Source of the DNA: a virus
IMG/VR virus record: IMGVR_UViG_3300045988_158908
Direction: 5' to 3' (one strand)
Length of the DNA: 12,636 nucleotides
Numbering within the stretch: the stretch's first letter is position 1; every line of letters starts with the position of its first letter. The notes under the pieces were generated by a model, which was given only the letters and a program-made list of their open reading frames with translations, did not search any database and was not told the DNA's origin. Shown one piece after another: positions 1 to 12,636 of this stretch. The position numbers and the translations under genes are program-made.

Positions 1-52
1 AAACTAGGCATGACAGTTCGTTCTGACAATTCATGCAAATTCCCCAACTTGT

Positions 53-138
53 CAGACAATTAGACAAATTGTGTGAAATTAGAAACAATTCTGACAATTA
101 GACAAATTGTGTGAAAATTAGAAACAATTCAGACAATT
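53..138. repeat. Tandem direct repeat (38/39-bp unit, about 2.2 copies) inside the left ITR, built from GACAATT / GACAAATT / GAAACAATT iterons
   Basis: Unit 53-90 is CAGACAATTAGACAAATTGTGTGAAATTAGAAACAATT. Unit 91-129 is CTGACAATTAGACAAATTGTGTGAAAATTAGAAACAATT (1 substitution, 1 extra A). A third partial unit, CAGACAATT, lies at 130-138. Exact GACAATT occurs at 25-31, 55-61, 93-99 and 132-138. The array is bracketed by inverted GTCAGACA copies (51-58, and reverse complement at 146-153). Confidence 0.9.
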
Positions 139-178
139 TATCAATCTGTCTGACTTTAATACTTTGTTATAAAAACCG

Positions 179-207
179 TTGACTTTTATATGTAAAACTG
201 CTATTAT
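179..207 (+). promoter_or_regulatory. Sigma-A/sigma-70-type promoter inside the left ITR, reading inward
   Basis: TTGACT (179-184), a 17-nt spacer, then TATTAT (202-207), with an A/T-rich tract upstream. AAGGAG (238-243) and ATG 252 follow downstream. Confidence 0.6.
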
Positions 208-251
208 GAGGTTGTAACAATCAAATAGCAAAATGTAAAGGAGAAAAAATC

Positions 252-710
252 ATGTTTGAATTACAATCTTGTAAAATCACTAGGAGAGAAAAAAGAGGTG
301 ATGCAAGCAATATGTTTACTGTACATATTGCATATTATGAAGCAACTTGTGTTGATGAAAATAAAGAAGAGTACGTTTATTCGAGTGAACTTATTTATGT
401 TAATAAAGTTCCAACATTATTTGATTGCTTAAATGATGCAATTAGCGCATTTTATAATAAAGATGAGTTAATCCCTACTCATAAGAAACGTATAACATTT
501 ATTGAAATTTGCAGTATGATGGGTTCTAAAAAATATTTAGACCTGTATTTAAACGGTACTTTATATAAAAGGCGTTTATACTTGTATGATTTAAATTGTG
601 TTTATTCATACTTGAAAAGAAATGGGTTGTTTGTTTATGATGTAACACAATCACTCACAGTACCAAGTGAGTATAATTTATTAGTAGAAAAGGAGAGAAA
701 AACATGTTAA
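252..710 (+). CDS. Hypothetical early protein (152 aa), no recognisable family
   Basis: First ORF after the ITR promoter. AAGGAG RBS lies 8 nt upstream of the ATG. Its stop overlaps the next start (ATGTTAA, 704-710). I recognise no motif. Confidence 0.6.
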   Translation: MFELQSCKITRREKRGDASNMFTVHIAYYEATCVDENKEEYVYSSELIYVNKVPTLFDCLNDAISAFYNKDELIPTHKKRITFIEICSMMGSKKYLDLYLNGTLYKRRLYLYDLNCVYSYLKRNGLFVYDVTQSLTVPSEYNLLVEKERKTC

Positions 711-1000
711 AATCATCTACAAAAATTACCTGCCGTCCTTATGATGGAAACAGTAAAACAAAAGCTTTTATTGAATTATGTCTCGATAAAACGCTTGTCA
801 TTAAAGGCTTGACGCTTGTAGAGGGTTCACAAGGGTTATTTCTTTCTTTTCCATCATCAAAGGGAAAAGATGGGAAATACCATAACTCAATTTACTCAGT
901 GGATAAGGAGTTTACAGGCCAGTTAGAAGAAGCTTGTATTAAAAAATACAACGAAGCATTTAATAAATCTGATAACTCAGATGAAGCACATTTTTCATAA
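704..1000 (+). CDS. spoVG: SpoVG-family nucleic-acid-binding protein homolog (98 aa)
   Basis: The segment KAFIELCLDKTLVIKGLTLVEGSQGLFLSFPSSKGKDGKYHNSIYSVDKEFTGQLEEACIKKY aligns by eye with B. subtilis SpoVG [63 protein letters not shown]. Shared elements are the GLF..PS....DG core and a similar length. GGAGAG RBS upstream, translationally coupled to the previous ORF. Confidence 0.75.
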   Translation: MLKSSTKITCRPYDGNSKTKAFIELCLDKTLVIKGLTLVEGSQGLFLSFPSSKGKDGKYHNSIYSVDKEFTGQLEEACIKKYNEAFNKSDNSDEAHFS

Positions 1001-1007
1001 AACTTAT

Positions 1008-1038
1008 AAGGTGTACTATTTAGTACACCTTTTTTTTT
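1008..1038 (+). terminator. Rho-independent terminator after the SpoVG-like gene
   Basis: AAGGTGTACT (1008-1017), loop ATTT, AGTACACCTT (1022-1031), giving a 10-bp perfect stem. A run of 7 T follows (1032-1038). Confidence 0.8.
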
Positions 1039-1054
1039 CAGTAAAGGAGATTAA

Positions 1055-2110
1055 ATGAATATATATGATAAAAACGGATGGTTAGACATTCCAAAAATCG
1101 TAAATACTTGTGAAAAAAACGAGATAAATTTTATCTTCATTATCGGTGCTCGTCGTACCGGAAAAACATATGGGATCTTTAAACATTTCATTGAGGATGT
1201 TTTTTCAAAGGATGAAAAAGTAATATATATGAGAAGAAAAACAACTCAAATAGATTCCGTGTTAGTTGATACTATGAATCCTTGGATTGACATTAATCAT
1301 GATCTTCATAGGAATTTCTATTTTAAAAAGCTAAAAGGGGAAAAAAGCCGGGTATCATTGCAAGAAATCAACGAAGCTGGAGAGGAGATTTATCATGGTG
1401 AAGCTTTTAGTCTTACTAGTTTAATGAATAATCGAGGATTCTCAGGATCCGGCTTTTCAGAAGGAATCTATGATGAATTTATTCCTGAGAAGCTTGACAA
1501 AAGAATTAAAGGTGAAGAGGATGCGTTTCTGAATGGAGTAGAAACTATTTCTGCCAACCGTGAGTTACTTGGTGCAAAGCCTTTTCGTTGGTGGATTGTT
1601 TCAAATAGTAACACTCTTGACTCTCCGCTTATTCATTCTTTTGGGTTGCTTTCAAACTTAGAAAAAATGAAGAAGATCGGACAGGAGTTTTCCATGTTAA
1701 AAGATCGTGGAATAATCATTATTTTGATTAACAAAAGCCCCATTTCAGAAAAGAAAAGAAAGACAGCTCTTTATAAGGCTCTTACCGGAAGTACAGATTT
1801 TGAAAAAATGGCTCTCGACAATGAATTTGCATATGATGACACGAGTTCTATAAAGTCAGAAGATTTGAGAAAATATAGATTGATATGCATAGTTGGCTCA
1901 CTTGGGATTTATGAACACAAAAATGAAGCTAAACTTTACATAAGCGATCATATTTCCGGAACGTGCAAAGATAGCTTTCCTGACAGTGAGTTAGGGAAAT
2001 CTCAGTTTAAGTTTTATTATTCATGGGTATATAACTATATTATTAGTAATAGAATTTCTTATCAGAATCTGACTGTAAAATTTTATCTTGATAAAATTTT
2101 CAATATATGA
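1055..2110 (+). CDS. DNA encapsidation (packaging) ATPase, phi29 gp16-like
   Basis: Walker A FIIGARRTGKTYG matches phi29 gp16 FVIGARGIGKSYA. VIYMRRKT matches FIYVRRYK. Walker B GIYDEFIPEK matches IVFDEFIREK. VSNSNT matches LSNA, and FEKMALDNEFAY matches GEMSLDNQF. Length is 351 aa versus 332 aa for gp16. AAGGAG RBS. Confidence 0.9.
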   Translation: MNIYDKNGWLDIPKIVNTCEKNEINFIFIIGARRTGKTYGIFKHFIEDVFSKDEKVIYMRRKTTQIDSVLVDTMNPWIDINHDLHRNFYFKKLKGEKSRVSLQEINEAGEEIYHGEAFSLTSLMNNRGFSGSGFSEGIYDEFIPEKLDKRIKGEEDAFLNGVETISANRELLGAKPFRWWIVSNSNTLDSPLIHSFGLLSNLEKMKKIGQEFSMLKDRGIIIILINKSPISEKKRKTALYKALTGSTDFEKMALDNEFAYDDTSSIKSEDLRKYRLICIVGSLGIYEHKNEAKLYISDHISGTCKDSFPDSELGKSQFKFYYSWVYNYIISNRISYQNLTVKFYLDKIFNI

Positions 2111-6299: not shown

Positions 6300-6315
6300 T
6301 GTTTCACGTGAAACA
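6300..6315. promoter_or_regulatory. 16-bp perfect palindrome TGTTTCACGTGAAACA immediately after the tail knob stop codon
   Basis: TAA (6297-6299) followed directly by TGTTTCACGTGAAACA. A near-identical copy follows the stop of the appendage gene (9193-9209). Confidence 0.5.
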
Positions 6316-7947: not shown

Positions 7948-9192
7948 ATGATTAATACGTACCCTCACAGCTCCACACAGGACATGAACTTAGACTACCT
8001 CTTAAAAGTGGCAAAGCATGCAGAAGAGGATCACAAAGAATGGTCAGACATAAAAGGGACTGCACAAAAGCAGATTGATGATGCAATTAAAGCGTCACTA
8101 GAATCCGGAGAGATTGGAAAAGTAGTTGATGATGCAACGAAAAAAATCTTGACGGATGAAATTGAACCATTAAAGAACACAGTAACCGAACAAGGCAAAC
8201 TGATTTCTAATCTCGAAAAAAGAGACGGTTTATTTGATTTAAGCGGTAGAACTATCATTATCGGAGACAGCTACACAGTAGGCTATACTCCGGAAGGAAA
8301 TATAACTCCTTGGACAGAACACTTTTTGGATTACTGTTCTATAGACAATGTAACTATTAAAAGCAATGGTGGTGCTTCTTTTTCAACGTCTAATAACTCA
8401 TTTCTTATGCTTTTAAATCAGATTGACGCTGATCCATCTGTAAAGCAGATCTTAGTAGTTGGGGGTTATAATGAGTTCGGTTTTTATTCAGAAATTGAAA
8501 ATGCGATCAACGCTTTCTATGGAGTAGCGCAAACACGTTTTCCAAACGCTAAAATTTTTGTAGCAATGGTTGCATGGTCAGCGGACAGCACACAATGGAA
8601 CAGATTCAAGATTGCAAAAAGTGCGTATAACACACAGCGGAAAAATTGGAACTATCTTAATGGAAGCGAATATATTTTACACGCTGACGGATTCATGGGG
8701 TCGGACGGTTTTCATCCAAACACGACCGGACAGGAACGACTCGCTACATACCTTGCGGAAGCAGTAAAAACCGGGTCTTGTCATCCATCCTTTTATGATG
8801 TGACTGCAAACTTTGAAGCAGGAGACTTTACAGCAACTCCGGGGTCTAGTTGGGTGTTCGTTACAGAGTACAACGAAAATAATAGTAATATCATCTGGAG
8901 TGATTATGTTTGTTTTCCAAACAGCGGTGAACTTGTTTGTAATGGTACAGAATACTATCTAGGTCGCATCTATTCTACCAGTTTTATTGGAGATGGAAAC
9001 GGTTATACATGCTACCCTACTAGTGTGATTGTAAAATCTGGATCCGATTTTTATCACATTCCGGCACAGTTGAATTTCCGAGCGAGACAGATTTATCTTG
9101 CTCTGTATGACATTAGTGATGACAAGCATAACTACAGAACGCTTACAACCGTAACACAGGTACAAATTCACAGAGGATCCATTACAATGTAA
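7948..9192 (+). CDS. Tail appendage / receptor-binding protein with a central SGNH (GDSL) hydrolase domain
   Basis: SGNH blocks are present: I TIIIGDSYTVGY, II SNGGASF, III LVVGGYNEF, V GSDGFHPNTTGQERLA. The N-terminal roughly 90 aa is charged and helical, and the C-terminal roughly 140 aa is a distinct domain. It is the last structural gene, in the phi29 gene 12 position. AAAGGAG RBS. Confidence 0.75.
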   Translation: MINTYPHSSTQDMNLDYLLKVAKHAEEDHKEWSDIKGTAQKQIDDAIKASLESGEIGKVVDDATKKILTDEIEPLKNTVTEQGKLISNLEKRDGLFDLSGRTIIIGDSYTVGYTPEGNITPWTEHFLDYCSIDNVTIKSNGGASFSTSNNSFLMLLNQIDADPSVKQILVVGGYNEFGFYSEIENAINAFYGVAQTRFPNAKIFVAMVAWSADSTQWNRFKIAKSAYNTQRKNWNYLNGSEYILHADGFMGSDGFHPNTTGQERLATYLAEAVKTGSCHPSFYDVTANFEAGDFTATPGSSWVFVTEYNENNSNIIWSDYVCFPNSGELVCNGTEYYLGRIYSTSFIGDGNGYTCYPTSVIVKSGSDFYHIPAQLNFRARQIYLALYDISDDKHNYRTLTTVTQVQIHRGSITM

Positions 9193-9209
9193 TGTTTTCA
9201 CGTGAAACA
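9193..9209. promoter_or_regulatory. Second copy of the TGTTT(T)CACGTGAAACA palindrome, immediately after the appendage gene stop codon
   Basis: TAA (9190-9192) followed by TGTTTTCACGTGAAACA, with one extra T relative to 6300-6315. Confidence 0.5.
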
Positions 9210-9246
9210 AAAAATAAAGGGATGCAAATTTGCATCCCTTTATTTT
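9209..9246. terminator. Bidirectional rho-independent terminator where the two arms converge
   Basis: Perfect palindrome ATAAAGGGATGCAAATTTGCATCCCTTTAT. The stem pairs AAAGGGATGCA (9216-9226) with TGCATCCCTTT (9231-9241). An A-run lies 5' (9209-9214) and a T-run 3' (9243-9246). It sits between the + strand stop (9192) and the polymerase stop (9245-9247). Confidence 0.85.
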
Positions 9247-11371
9247 AACTATATAAAACATCTTTTGTCTCAAACGGCAACGGCAACCCTGTTTCCTTAT
9301 CATACGGAATGGTGTGATCCAATTCATACTCCGTATCGGATAAACGGATTGCACATCCATACTCTATTCTGCATCCATCAACAGTTATATTGTTAATTCC
9401 TTTGCTATAGAGGTATTCCGTTTTAAGTTTCCAACTTGGGTCTTTTTTCCAGTCGTTTGCACGGCGGTAGTTTCTACGATAAGTGAGACTATTTCTATAG
9501 ATGAATCCTTTTTCAAAGTTATTTATATTGTCATCAAGACAGTACACTCCGTCTTTTGGAACTCCTGCAACGGTCTGTTTTAGCTTTCCCTTTTCACGGT
9601 AACAGTAACGCTTGCTACCCATAGTTTTAAATTCGCTATAAATACCGTCAAACTCAGCAATTCCTAGCGTGTGTGATTCTCCATCAAAGAGTACCGTTCC
9701 AAGTCCTCGTTGCTCTGATTTTTTCATGATTTTTTCATTATACTCAACAAGTTTTTTCCTATCCCATTCCGTGCCTTTAACGGAATCGGTGTCAGAATAA
9801 AACCATATTTTGCAACACTTCCCAAGTTCAAATAACTCAGACTGGGCATAGGCTGTAATCCATACTCCCCATTGATAAGGTAAAAAAGAATTTCTACTTT
9901 TGTAATACTTTTGTAACTTTTCATCATATTCAGATTCACATAAAACATCAGTCCATAACCCTGTTTCATAATCTTCTTCAAACATGGATTGGATCATCTT
10001 TTGAACCATCATGCCATAGATTCCATTAAGTTCCCCTTTTGAAATCATATAAAGCACCGGGTCTGCATGTTTCAATGTGTTCTTATGTTCGAAAAGTTCT
10101 ATCACATACTTAATAATCCAATCTGGCAAGTAGTCTTTCTTTGCACGTATGACGTTTGCAACGTCAGCCCATTCAAAGTCATAGGCTTCAAATATGACCT
10201 GCAAATCCGGATCCGTAAACGGATAGATTACAAGATCTGCATTAACGATTTTACCATTATCAAGATTCAACTCCATAGCTTTCTTTTTACTTATCTTATC
10301 TGCATCTGGAAACGTGCAAACTTTTGCTTTGTGAAAAGCAAGAGGTGGCATTGGATGCCCTTTTTTCAAGCGTAGCTTTTTCAAGCGTATATAGCCGGCA
10401 AAAGCATAATGCTCTTTAAGATCCATGATTTCCTGCAACGATAACTTTGTAGAAACAAAGTTTGTCATAGGAAACTTTTCATATACGATTCTAGCCGGAT
10501 AAGAACTTGTAAAATCGTAGCACTCCACCGGTTCCGAAATTAACTGATTGACATAGTAGCGGTTCGCATGAGTATAGCCACCGTGATAGCAGGATGCGAG
10601 CAACTCGTACTGATCTAAACTAAGTCGCATTGACATAAATTTCTTATGCCATTTCTTGTCTTTTCGTGATCTTGATCTTGCTTGGTTACGGATAAAGCCT
10701 GTATTTGTCAATGGGGCAGTAGCAACAGTTACGTTTCTTTGCGATAAATAGAGCCGTAAAGCTTTACACAAGCAGATAGTATCAACACAAACATAAGCTA
10801 ATTCCTTTACAGTACGCCCAGATTCAGGGGTTCTTTTCTTTTTATAGTCCCACGTACCAGTAGCTTTCTCAAGCGTCCCCATGTCCTTACAGAGACGTTC
10901 AAGAGTACGTTGTGTAAGGATAGCACTATCACGGATTTCAATGCCGAAAGATTGCCATTGCATAAATACGTATCTGTGAGTTTTAACAGCTAATTTTCGA
11001 TCCGGAACGCCAAACTTCTCTAATAGATGATTGCGCAGAAACATATAGTCATACGATAGGTTATGTATATAAAATCTCACTGTATGTTCTTTATCAGCAT
11101 GAAGCGTGTCACAAATCCGGTCAATCGTATTGATAAGATCACGTACATGATTACCGTACAAACAGCTATCATTTTCTATAGTTATAGTCCAATCAGTTAT
11201 CCATCCAATGTCTTCATTATCAGACACATAGGTCTCAGTGTCTACAGTTATGATTTTTTCATAAAAAGACTGATAATGTCCTGCATTACTTTTTCGTATG
11301 AAATTACCGTCAAAAAGACGCATGTAATCGTAGTCTTTAAATGATACAATTGGATATCCTGCTATAACCAT
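9245..11371 (-). CDS. Protein-primed family B DNA polymerase
   Basis: Exo I ITVDTETY, Exo II YIHNLSYDYMFL, Exo III YVCVDTICL. Motif A YDFTSSYPA (phi29 DVNSLYPA), motif B KGELNGIYGM (phi29 KLMLNSLYG), motif C FYSDTDSV (phi29 YCDTDS), and KxY as GSKRYCY. 708 aa. Confidence 0.95.
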   Translation of the reverse strand: MVIAGYPIVSFKDYDYMRLFDGNFIRKSNAGHYQSFYEKIITVDTETYVSDNEDIGWITDWTITIENDSCLYGNHVRDLINTIDRICDTLHADKEHTVRFYIHNLSYDYMFLRNHLLEKFGVPDRKLAVKTHRYVFMQWQSFGIEIRDSAILTQRTLERLCKDMGTLEKATGTWDYKKKRTPESGRTVKELAYVCVDTICLCKALRLYLSQRNVTVATAPLTNTGFIRNQARSRSRKDKKWHKKFMSMRLSLDQYELLASCYHGGYTHANRYYVNQLISEPVECYDFTSSYPARIVYEKFPMTNFVSTKLSLQEIMDLKEHYAFAGYIRLKKLRLKKGHPMPPLAFHKAKVCTFPDADKISKKKAMELNLDNGKIVNADLVIYPFTDPDLQVIFEAYDFEWADVANVIRAKKDYLPDWIIKYVIELFEHKNTLKHADPVLYMISKGELNGIYGMMVQKMIQSMFEEDYETGLWTDVLCESEYDEKLQKYYKSRNSFLPYQWGVWITAYAQSELFELGKCCKIWFYSDTDSVKGTEWDRKKLVEYNEKIMKKSEQRGLGTVLFDGESHTLGIAEFDGIYSEFKTMGSKRYCYREKGKLKQTVAGVPKDGVYCLDDNINNFEKGFIYRNSLTYRRNYRRANDWKKDPSWKLKTEYLYSKGINNITVDGCRIEYGCAIRLSDTEYELDHTIPYDKETGLPLPFETKDVLYS

Positions 11372-11382
11372 TTTTTTTTTTT

Positions 11383-12030
11383 TTACCTCTTGTATTTATA
11401 TTTCAGTGCTTCTGCTTCTCCGGAGAAACCTAGCTCTTTTGCTACGTCATCCGCTCTATCTATGTCCGTGCGGTCTCTGAACTCTTCTAATTTGCTAATT
11501 ATTTCATTCATTGTATCACCGTCTCGCAAAGCTTTTCCAACGAACTCTACAGCCTGTTCAGAAGAATATAACAGACTTATAAGTTCAAAAGCATATGACT
11601 GAAAAAATGCACTCATCTCGCTTGTATCTTTGAATTCAAGACCATATTCAGACAACTTCTCACGTCTCTTTTTTATGATGGATTTCCATCCGGGAACCGT
11701 AGAACTTTTTTCTTTTAAGACATTCTGCATCATTTGTACCTGCTTACGCATGGAAGAAATCTGCATATAAAGGACGTTACGATCACTGTAATCCAACTTT
11801 ATTTTTTCTCTTATTCTTTTATTATACCCGAACTTTTTTAGAAATGCATTGTAATCAGCGTAAGCACCACCGGATTCAGAAGTGAATCCTGCTCTCTCTA
11901 AACGAACCATACGCTGATTTAGACGTTTAGCCAAACTTGTATAAAGTCTGGCTAATTCTTTTTCATTAAGTTTATATGGGTTTATATCCTGCCCCTTGGT
12001 TGTGATTCTTTCTGCTCCCTTTAAAGCCAT
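11383..12030 (-). CDS. Putative terminal protein (TP), the primer for DNA replication
   Basis: 215 aa, directly upstream of and coupled to the polymerase gene (phi29 gene 3 / gene 2 arrangement). It has a basic N-terminal region and an acidic C-terminal part. The loose resemblance NEKELARLYTSLAKRLNQRMVRLERAG versus phi29 TP DKAEYARLVKNTKAKIARTKKKYG is suggestive only. AGGAG RBS. Confidence 0.55.
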   Translation of the reverse strand: MALKGAERITTKGQDINPYKLNEKELARLYTSLAKRLNQRMVRLERAGFTSESGGAYADYNAFLKKFGYNKRIREKIKLDYSDRNVLYMQISSMRKQVQMMQNVLKEKSSTVPGWKSIIKKRREKLSEYGLEFKDTSEMSAFFQSYAFELISLLYSSEQAVEFVGKALRDGDTMNEIISKLEEFRDRTDIDRADDVAKELGFSGEAEALKYKYKR

Positions 12031-12032
12031 TG

Positions 12033-12263
12033 CTACTCCTTTCTAAATCTTGGGGCGATCCAATCATCACACTGGTCAAAAGTTCCGTCCGGATAAACTT
12101 CAATACCTTTTACCCATTTAAGAAACATTGTAGGACGTTTATAGCCGGACACTTTGAACTCATTCCAGAGACCGTTGTAATCCATAAACTCGGTGACTGC
12201 ATCTGCTTTTTTCTTTGCGTAGTATTTATAAATTGCGTTAAATTGTGTTTTACTTCTTTTCAT
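12033..12263 (-). CDS. Hypothetical basic early protein (76 aa)
   Basis: AAGGTGA RBS, tightly packed upstream of the TP gene, Lys/Arg-rich N-terminus (MKRSKTQFNAIYKYYAKKKAD). No family recognised. Confidence 0.6.
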   Translation of the reverse strand: MKRSKTQFNAIYKYYAKKKADAVTEFMDYNGLWNEFKVSGYKRPTMFLKWVKGIEVYPDGTFDQCDDWIAPRFRKE

Positions 12264-12388: not shown

Positions 12389-12429
12389 CTTTCTATCTCC
12401 TTAATGACTGTATTGATTGTTACAACCTC

Positions 12430-12458
12430 ATAATAGCAGTTTTACATATAAAAGTCAA
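12430..12458 (-). promoter_or_regulatory. Identical promoter inside the right ITR, reading inward on the minus strand
   Basis: Reverse complement of 179-207 (AGTCAA at 12453-12458, ATAATA at 12430-12435). On the minus strand it is followed by AAGGAG and the ATG at 12388. Confidence 0.6.
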
Positions 12459-12498
12459 CGGTTTTTATAACAAAGTATTAAAGTCAGACAGATTGATA

Positions 12499-12584
12499 AA
12501 TTGTCTGAATTGTTTCTAATTTTCACACAATTTGTCTAATTGTCAGAATTGTTTCTAATTTCACACAATTTGTCTAATTGTCTG
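12499..12584. repeat. Mirror copy of the ITR-internal tandem iteron array (right ITR)
   Basis: Reverse complement of 53-138, which follows from the perfect ITR identity. Confidence 0.9.
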
Positions 12585-12636
12585 ACAAGTTGGGGAATTT
12601 GCATGAATTGTCAGAACGAACTGTCATGCCTAGTTT

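Follow-up and report, generated by a model that had tools for sequence, protein, structure and literature searches.

A SpoVG-fold protein in a small phi29-like phage genome as a candidate single-stranded-DNA-binding replication accessory

The SpoVG-like gene and its product

The IMG/VR virus record IMGVR_UViG_3300045988_158908, a stretch of 12,636 bp with 36% G+C that we analysed as a whole and refer to as the window, is a complete linear genome of the phi29-like podovirus type. Near its left end it carries a gene for a 98-aa protein with the fold of SpoVG, and this gene is the subject of the present analysis. In the order of the plus strand, the window contains a 152-aa open reading frame (ORF), the 98-aa SpoVG-like ORF, a hairpin followed by nine T residues, and the genes for a gp16-type DNA packaging ATPase and a 95-aa Gln/Asn-repeat protein; these are followed by a Phi29-type major capsid protein, an NlpC/P60 lysin, a phi29-type connector and the tail genes. 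From the right end, the minus strand carries in succession a 76-aa ORF, a 215-aa ORF and the gene for a protein-primed-type family B DNA polymerase (PolB). The ATG of the SpoVG-like gene overlaps the stop codon of the 152-aa ORF (ATGTTAA). Coordinates are collected in Table 1.

The product of the gene matched Pfam family PF04026 over profile positions 4-82 of 82, with an E-value of 3.4e-17 and 62.8 bits for a gathering cut-off of 29.6. A phmmer search against the PDB sequences returned only three entries, all of them SpoVG: 2i9z and 2i9x from Staphylococcus epidermidis (E 1.5e-10) and 2ia9 from Bacillus subtilis (E 6e-8). The crystal structures of these three entries were also the only ones retrieved when an AlphaFold (AF2) model of the protein was submitted to Foldseek (template-modelling (TM) score 0.76-0.88; root-mean-square deviation 1.2-2.1 Å), and in a viral library the model matched phage models labelled 'putative SpoVG', that of phiCP7R among them. 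The model was computed from a 58-sequence alignment and had a predicted local distance difference test score (pLDDT) of 90.6; an earlier one, from a shallow alignment of sequences that were 81-92% identical, reached a pLDDT of 51 and was discarded. The folded domain is predicted to span approximately residues 6-87 and to comprise six beta strands and a C-terminal helix starting at residue 68. A PADLOC match of the tail region to Cas6 (E 0.004, 15 bits) was dismissed as noise.

With the chromosomal SpoVGs of B. subtilis, Staphylococcus aureus, S. epidermidis, Listeria monocytogenes and Borrelia burgdorferi, the window protein shares the fold, a conserved GLF..PS.K loop and a C-terminal helix followed by a disordered tail. 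Unlike the chromosomal spoVG locus, its gene lies in a lytic-type phage genome. Its identity to the Bacillus and Staphylococcus SpoVGs amounts to only about 20-30% in the alignment, and it scored 55.5 bits against the NCBIfam septation-regulator equivalog NF009749, which is below the cut-off of 108 and compares with 55.3 for gp23 of the Clostridium perfringens phage phiCPV4 and 162 for B. subtilis SpoVG. Judged by sequence, the 98-aa protein is not an orthologue or equivalog of the chromosomal septation regulator. Pro63, which is reportedly essential for function in B. subtilis SpoVG (cited in PMC3362512), is replaced by Ser65 in the window protein and by Phe in the proteins of the Guelinviridae, the podovirus family to which phiCPV4 belongs. 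Of two neighbouring basic residues (K50-R51 in S. aureus, R53-R54 in B. burgdorferi), each is needed for DNA binding (PMC3688583); this pair aligns to S52-K53 in the window protein, where K55, two residues further on, might compensate. The corresponding motif in the window family is PS[ST]KGKDGK, with K53 invariant, K55 nearly so, and the first basic residue replaced by Ser or Thr. The 'specificity' hexapeptide reads KEFTGQ in the window, versus SDMRQE and QDFRKA in chromosomal SpoVGs.

The gene was found in all the relatives examined, and pairwise ratios of nonsynonymous to synonymous substitutions (dN/dS) of 0.17-0.22 indicated purifying selection. In the comparison with the distant relative L100, the SpoVG-like protein was 76% identical, the connector 74%, PolB 67% and the capsid protein 61%. 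By these measures the gene behaves as a vertically inherited core gene and not as a recent capture from a host. In metagenomes, the same protein formed more than 700 clusters at 90% identity; the samples that could be identified were human gut, and many contigs of the family are 12.1-12.9 kb long. In the reference phage collection, genuine phage SpoVG genes were concentrated in phi29-like podoviruses, namely the window family, the Guelinviridae, MT835939 (L099) and two 15-kb IMG/VR contigs (L016 and L017). In L099, also of 15 kb, the gene (919-1200) has lysis genes as neighbours, and in L016 and L017 it lies directly 5' of gp16, with a gap of 3 nt in the divergent L016 lineage. Other candidates from the collection were set aside. 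The SpoVGs of OR845007 (L101 8001-8303) and OR849935 do not differ anywhere in the aligned stretch from that of staphylococcal origin in PDB 2i9z; the protein of MT836006.1 (L098 3364-3654) looks canonical, and the same probably applies to the MT83xxxx contigs of 4-7 kb. The records OR845007.1, OR849935.1 and MT836006.1, which are marked UNVERIFIED, are probably bacterial DNA in the phage collection, by which counts of phage-encoded SpoVG would be inflated. An 85.9-kb IMG/VR contig (L015) has two SpoVG-like genes about 700 bp apart (8976-9251, 91 aa; 9968-10216, 82 aa), neither of which encodes a C-terminal Pro-Phe (PF) tail.

SpoVG-like genes in phi29-like phages are not new. A 'putative SpoVG' gene of C. 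perfringens podoviruses was described in 2012, its role being left open (Volozhantsev et al., PMC3362512), and the carriers among the Guelinviridae include phiCPV4, phiZP2, phiCP7R, CPS2 and the CPQ series; no SpoVG gene is mentioned in a review of phi29-like phages from 2024 (PMC11476376). The window protein is thus a new, rather divergent case of SpoVG genes already annotated in phi29-like podoviruses of the Clostridia type. Both groups combine a SpoVG-family protein of about 100 aa, in which Pro63 is replaced, with a small protein-primed phi29-like podovirus genome, and in both the gene is the last in a run of small genes from one genome end, before the head genes, with the PolB operon at the other end. 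They represent different phage families: the Guelinviridae genomes measure 17-18 kb and have a 28-bp inverted terminal repeat (ITR), as compared with 12.6 kb and 224 bp for the window, and they have a 214-bp gap after the SpoVG gene and gp16 at the other genome end, next to PolB. The identity between the proteins is about 29% over the whole alignment and about 40% in the tblastn segment, with a phmmer score of 36.8 bits for phiCPV4. The Guelinviridae protein has a loop insertion, KDKEGKDG, and ends in DGDIPF, a tip of the type found in single-stranded-DNA-binding proteins (SSBs), whereas the window family ends in SD.SD..FS. In phmmer scores, chromosomal, PF-tailed and Guelinviridae proteins all stand at about the same distance from the window protein, and a single clade of phi29-phage SpoVGs, looked for by score, was not found. 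Because of these near-equal scores, function can be transferred between the groups by analogy of fold and lifestyle, not by orthology.

In several respects, these results agree with the original prediction for this DNA. The ORF at 704-1000, with its ATG start on the plus strand, is exactly as described there; the proposed SpoVG homology was borne out by the Pfam profile and by the structure comparison; and the argument that such a gene would not be ballast fits its presence in every relative examined with a dN/dS of about 0.2. The novelty implied for a phage-borne SpoVG was overstated in view of the 2012 report.

The sequence around the gene bears on its expression. Each ITR holds three 38/39-nt iterons and one inward-facing promoter-like site, the same at both ends. 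Because the ITRs are identical, the SpoVG-like gene and the PolB operon are each preceded by the same promoter-like site, and with a complete putative site in each ITR, identical inward transcripts would start from both genome ends. The gene physically adjoins the packaging ATPase and has a promoter-like site matching that which faces the PolB operon. Six of eight relatives keep the hairpin between the gene and the ATPase; L010 has a deletion of it, and L100, in which the SpoVG stop codon overlaps the ATPase start codon (TAATG), also lacks it. Since no room is left for a promoter between the hairpin and the ribosome-binding site of the ATPase, and since the hairpin is missing from two relatives, it is probably an attenuator rather than a full stop. 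A promoter-like site upstream and an attenuator-like hairpin downstream would be consistent with a SpoVG output above that of the ATPase. Of the two-gene left early operon that had been proposed, the promoter-like site in the ITR and the stable hairpin were found as stated, but the layout is not fixed, as L010 and L100 do without the hairpin.

C-terminal tails and gene neighbourhoods of relatives

In the window protein, residues 88-98 form a polar, disordered tail (pLDDT 55) with the sequence NKSDNSDEAHFS, which ends in Phe97-Ser98. A Phe at the second-to-last position was present in 119 of 120 family members. The net charge of the last 12 residues has a median of 0 in the family and is -2 in the window. 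An acidic tip ending in P-F, which we looked for, was not found in the window protein, its end being F-S. The Phe recurs in outgroups that are 52-76% identical (P0121, P0147 and L100, with the tails DDFS, QHFD and GGGFQ), though the rest of the tail has diverged. Its retention while the remainder of the tail diverges would argue for a short linear motif.

When 1.8 billion representatives were searched exhaustively with HMMER, 1,584 matches were obtained, and two classes stood out among them. Proteins of one class (P0122-P0255) contain two to four SpoVG domains and have basic C-terminal tails; some are fused to ArdC-N, M78 peptidase, MuF-C, DUF3848/DUF3849 or ToxN. One such multi-SpoVG gene (L113 8001-8663) lies in a region resembling an integrative and conjugative element, beside a sortase, DUF6674, DUF3879 and transposases. 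Proteins of the other class have a single domain and end in an acidic run followed by [LIV]-P-F. In their alignment, the folded domain is followed by a low-complexity linker that varies and by a DD(D/E)(L/I)PF tip, and this succession of domain, linker and acidic PF tip is the layout, and the tip the motif, of bacterial SSB. The PF ending was observed in 16 of 70 single-domain representatives and in 28 of the 36 matches of a follow-up profile search, as well as in all four C. perfringens Guelinviridae podovirus proteins sampled. It was rare in the multi-domain forms (1/79 and 0/81). As a control, 80 chromosomal SpoVGs were retrieved from species-representative genomes by a query with the PF-tailed proteins; not one of them had a PF end, nor did the Bacillus and Staphylococcus SpoVG proteins in the alignment.

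All seven of the gene contexts that we inspected for PF-tailed proteins were phage replication or recombination modules. Six of these genes lie just downstream of ERF; in five cases the two genes overlap, and in L110 one 67-aa ORF stands between them. The upstream partners at the ERF-linked loci are PDDEXK, Sipho_Gp157 or DUF1351. The seventh gene is located between DnaB and Pol III alpha on a 117-kb phage contig, where the Pol III alpha (DnaE-type) gene (L105 11990-15958) is interrupted by an intein. No Pfam SSB was listed in the seven loci, of which about 10 kb on each side were inspected. In a survey of Firmicutes phages, erf was followed by ssb in almost 80% of instances, and the erf-ssb module was preceded by Gam, DUF2483, DUF1351 or sipho_gp157; SpoVG was not mentioned (PMC8093625). 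Taken with this rule, the position next to ERF indicates that the ssb slot of these phages is taken by a SpoVG-fold protein carrying an SSB tip. We found no earlier statement of this idea in the literature on SpoVG with polyvalent proteins, with SSB or ERF, or on prophage SSB; the apparent replacement of ssb by SSB-tipped SpoVG-fold proteins in phage ERF modules, as read from gene order and tails, is therefore the part of this work without a published precedent that we could find.

Possible functions of the SpoVG-fold protein

Long single strands are displaced in the course of protein-primed replication, and phi29 supplies an SSB of its own, p5, in large amounts. When eleven early proteins of phi29 were compared with the window, the polymerase (p2) alone had a match; for p3, p4, p5 and p6, tblastn and phmmer --max gave nothing better than an E-value of about 1, so that the absence of p4 and p6 homologs noted in the original prediction holds at the sequence level. 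Across the phi29-like SpoVG carriers, which require plenty of SSB, p5, p6 and SSBs with an oligonucleotide/oligosaccharide-binding (OB) fold were likewise not detectable. Like p5 and p6, the SpoVG-fold protein is a small protein of a protein-primed podovirus encoded among the early genes, and no other gene of the window is a candidate for these roles. The phi29 p6 protein has 104 aa and an acidic tail (...EAPEEQVAE), as compared with 98 aa and a tailed C-terminus in the window protein. They differ in that there is no sequence similarity, that the window gene runs in the direction of the late genes, and that the gene order is another one.

We therefore considered the possibility that the SpoVG-fold protein is a single-stranded DNA (ssDNA)-binding replication accessory comparable to phi29 p5, and perhaps to p6. 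This is the reading that we favour, though tentatively and with somewhat less than an even chance of its being correct. It builds on the fold, the conservation, the purifying selection, the promoter-like site shared with the PolB operon and, in relatives, the SSB-like tails and the location in the ssb slot. The protein would be abundant and would coat the ssDNA displaced during protein-primed strand-displacement replication, as a functional counterpart of p5 that might overlap with the architectural role of p6; its flexible tail with the invariant Phe could offer a handle to a partner protein (polymerase, terminal protein or host factor, for example). Such a role is plausible because B. burgdorferi SpoVG prefers single-stranded ligands: its affinity for RNA is more than 100 times that for its cognate double-stranded DNA (dsDNA), and ssDNA competes (PMC11086051). 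If its function is SSB-like, the window protein is an analogue and not a member of the SSB family, since its fold is that of SpoVG and not OB. With the OB-fold SSBs (PF00436), it is the relatives, not the window protein, that share the three-part layout and the slot following ERF, the tail of the window protein being polar with a conserved Phe in second-to-last position.

Several observations weigh against this interpretation. The tail of the window family is polar, not strongly acidic, and with its F-S end it lacks a true SSB tip. The equivalent of K50 in the S. aureus DNA-binding pair is Ser or Thr throughout the family. The scores do not place the window protein nearer to the PF-tailed or Guelinviridae proteins than to the SpoVGs of chromosomes (medians 50.9 and 44.7 bits; phiCPV4 36.8). 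The check for a canonical SSB at the PF-tailed loci spans only about 10 kb per side, and some of the six ERF-linked examples are related among themselves. Finally, the tight coupling of the SpoVG-like gene to the ATPase gene in L100 and L016 could point to packaging.

A more general proposal, which we advance with greater reserve still, is that the SpoVG fold is the DNA-binding module of an unrecognised class of non-OB phage SSBs. In siphophage ERF modules, it would have displaced ssb and acquired an SSB tip; in gut and clostridial protein-primed podoviruses, it would be the missing p5-type SSB. If this were true, the tip would allow SpoVG-fold proteins to plug into the SSB interaction network of the host, and the long-debated core activity of SpoVG proteins would be the binding of single-stranded nucleic acids. 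An SSB-like window protein would provide the missing replication accessory of phi29-like phages outside Bacillus, useful for rebuilding a minimal protein-primed replication system, and would add a new fold to the SSB analogues. It would also give a biochemical handle, through ssDNA coating and the tail partner, on a protein family whose role in bacteria is disputed.

We weighed this SSB-like role against four other explanations. If the protein were an architectural dsDNA-binding protein or transcription switch like p6 or p4, it would act at the ITR iterons or at other sites, in initiation at the genome ends or in the early-to-late switch. S. aureus and B. burgdorferi SpoVG do bind specific dsDNA sites (PMC3688583), the size and tailed C-terminus of the window protein resemble those of p6, its gene adjoins the head-gene block (in phiCPV4 as in the window), as does phi29 gene 6, and the three iterons per ITR need a binding protein in a genome without p4 or p6 homologs. 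Yet, the dsDNA affinity of characterised SpoVGs is low relative to that for single-stranded ligands, the window protein has no equivalent of K50, which dsDNA binding requires, and CACGTG palindromes (10-mer core), which had been suggested as targets, occur in only two copies, a number not beyond chance (at least two in 33 of 200 shuffles). Since the relatives have SSB-type tips and an ssb slot beside ERF, which point to ssDNA, a p5-like role is favoured, and we regard a p4- or p6-like protein as unlikely. The earlier suggestion of a stand-in for p4/p6 thus went in the right direction, that of an early DNA-binding protein, but the tips and slots of the relatives lead to p5 instead. A post-transcriptional regulator or antiterminator that binds RNA would set the ratio of early to packaging and late products through read-through of the hairpin or through translation. 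The SpoVGs of Listeria and Borrelia are primarily RNA-binding (PMC4959528, PMC11086051), that of Borrelia having a U-rich 5' segment of an mRNA among its ligands, and the gene lies immediately 5' of the hairpin and its U9 tract, through which the downstream genes must be transcribed because there is no space for a promoter. However, L010 and L100 retain SpoVG without the hairpin, so that a conserved role cannot depend on this terminator; the Guelinviridae layout, with its gap after the gene, differs; and the SSB-type tips of relatives would be left unexplained. This explanation is accordingly rather improbable.

The SpoVG fold also invites the idea of host takeover, in which the phage protein would mimic or compete with host SpoVG and thereby reprogramme septation, sporulation or other regulons. 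The two proteins belong to the same fold family, and phi29 interacts with the sporulation control of its host. One publication counts viral spoVG among the auxiliary genes for sporulation (PMC8940887). Against this stand the equivalog score, about half the cut-off, and the low identity to host SpoVGs; the loss of Pro63 and K50 and the different specificity helix; the behaviour of a core gene that is old and vertically inherited, not recently captured; and the presence of SpoVG in non-sporulating bacteria as well. The hijacking of host SpoVG regulons or of sporulation, one of the hypotheses of the original prediction, therefore found little support, the least of all the readings, and we consider it very unlikely; the label 'sporulation auxiliary gene' used in virome work is probably wrong for the window gene and for many other phage copies. 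A packaging accessory that assists the gp16 ATPase and, for example, substitutes for prohead RNA (pRNA) as a protein or as an RNA-holding protein, would account for the position directly 5' of gp16, for the coupling in L100 and for the 3-nt spacing in the L016 lineage. No pRNA was detectable in the window by Rfam; pRNA is known only in Salasmaviridae (PMC11476376). But gp16 is at the other genome end in Guelinviridae, L099 has lysis genes around its SpoVG gene, the PF-tailed relatives are found in recombination modules far from packaging genes, and other phi29-like phages without pRNA package their DNA without a known SpoVG. We consider a packaging role very unlikely as well.

Neighbouring genes, genome ends and other features

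Table 1. Positions of the SpoVG-like gene and of other features in the 12,636-bp window.
Feature	Position	Strand	Evidence or remark
Left ITR	1-224		100% complementary to 12413-12636; iterons within 38-153
Promoter-like site TTGACT-17-TGnTATTAT (extended -10)	179-207	+	Inside left ITR; consensus match, putative
orf152 (152 aa), variable accessory gene	252-710	+	No Pfam, PHROG or PADLOC match
AGGAG ribosome-binding site, 8 nt 5' of SpoVG ATG	691-695	+	Sequence reading
SpoVG-fold protein gene (98 aa, ATG start)	704-1000	+	Pfam, PDB sequence match, AlphaFold model
Intrinsic-terminator-like hairpin (10 bp, 4-nt loop; 1008-1031) with T9	1008-1040	+	dG -13.1 kcal/mol, z -3.9
gp16-type DNA packaging ATPase	1055-2110	+	Pfam PF05894 E 5.5e-16; PHROG 2150 E 6.7e-33
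36-nt perfect palindrome AAAATAAAGGGATGCAAATTTGCATCCCTTTATTTT	9211-9246		Between convergent late block and polymerase gene
Protein-primed-type family B DNA polymerase (PolB)	9245-11371	-	Pfam PF03175 E 3.9e-11; phi29 p2 tblastn E 3.6e-7
orf215 (215 aa), directly upstream of PolB	11383-12030	-	Terminal-protein candidate from position alone, like phi29 gene 3
orf76 (76 aa), first gene of right-end operon	12033-12263	-	No family match (Pfam, PHROG, PADLOC)
Mirrored copy of promoter-like site	12458-12430	-	Faces orf76-orf215-PolB operon; consensus match, putative
Right ITR	12413-12636		Perfect 224-bp inverted copy of left end

The gene upstream of the SpoVG-like gene, orf152, is truncated, replaced or absent in several relatives, with coverages of 36-100% or none, and has no match in L010 and L100. 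The slot is a hotspot of variation, the 152-aa ORF of the window being matched in position by one of 94 aa in several relatives (L003 213-497). At the other end of the genome, an identification of orf215 as terminal protein through similarity failed, as it matched neither phi29 p3 nor phiCPV4 gp06. The ITRs are unusually long among phi29-like phages (6 bp in phi29, 28 bp in phiCPV4).

The palindrome at the junction of the two convergent blocks is likely a bidirectional terminator that separates them. Two Rfam matches to small RNAs at this place were sub-threshold, and the Rfam scan of the window gave no other family above threshold. The sequence TTTCACGTGAAAC occurs twice (6302-6314 and 9196-9208), each time 2-3 nt past the stop codon of a long ORF (a 449-aa ORF and a 414-aa GDSL ORF); the common 13-mer and the intergenic placing of the two copies are suggestive.

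A search with the endolysin, aimed at a link to the host, returned matches only to the same phage family. Within the ORF at 2250-2537, a tandem repeat of CAGAAC (2310-2405) encodes about 15 Gln-Asn pairs of the 95-aa protein. Many short Logan contigs with the SpoVG gene are about 2.0-2.2 kb long, and assemblies may break at this repeat. The Gln-Asn-repeat protein, which measures 83-99 aa among relatives, is encoded just upstream of the capsid gene, in the scaffold position.

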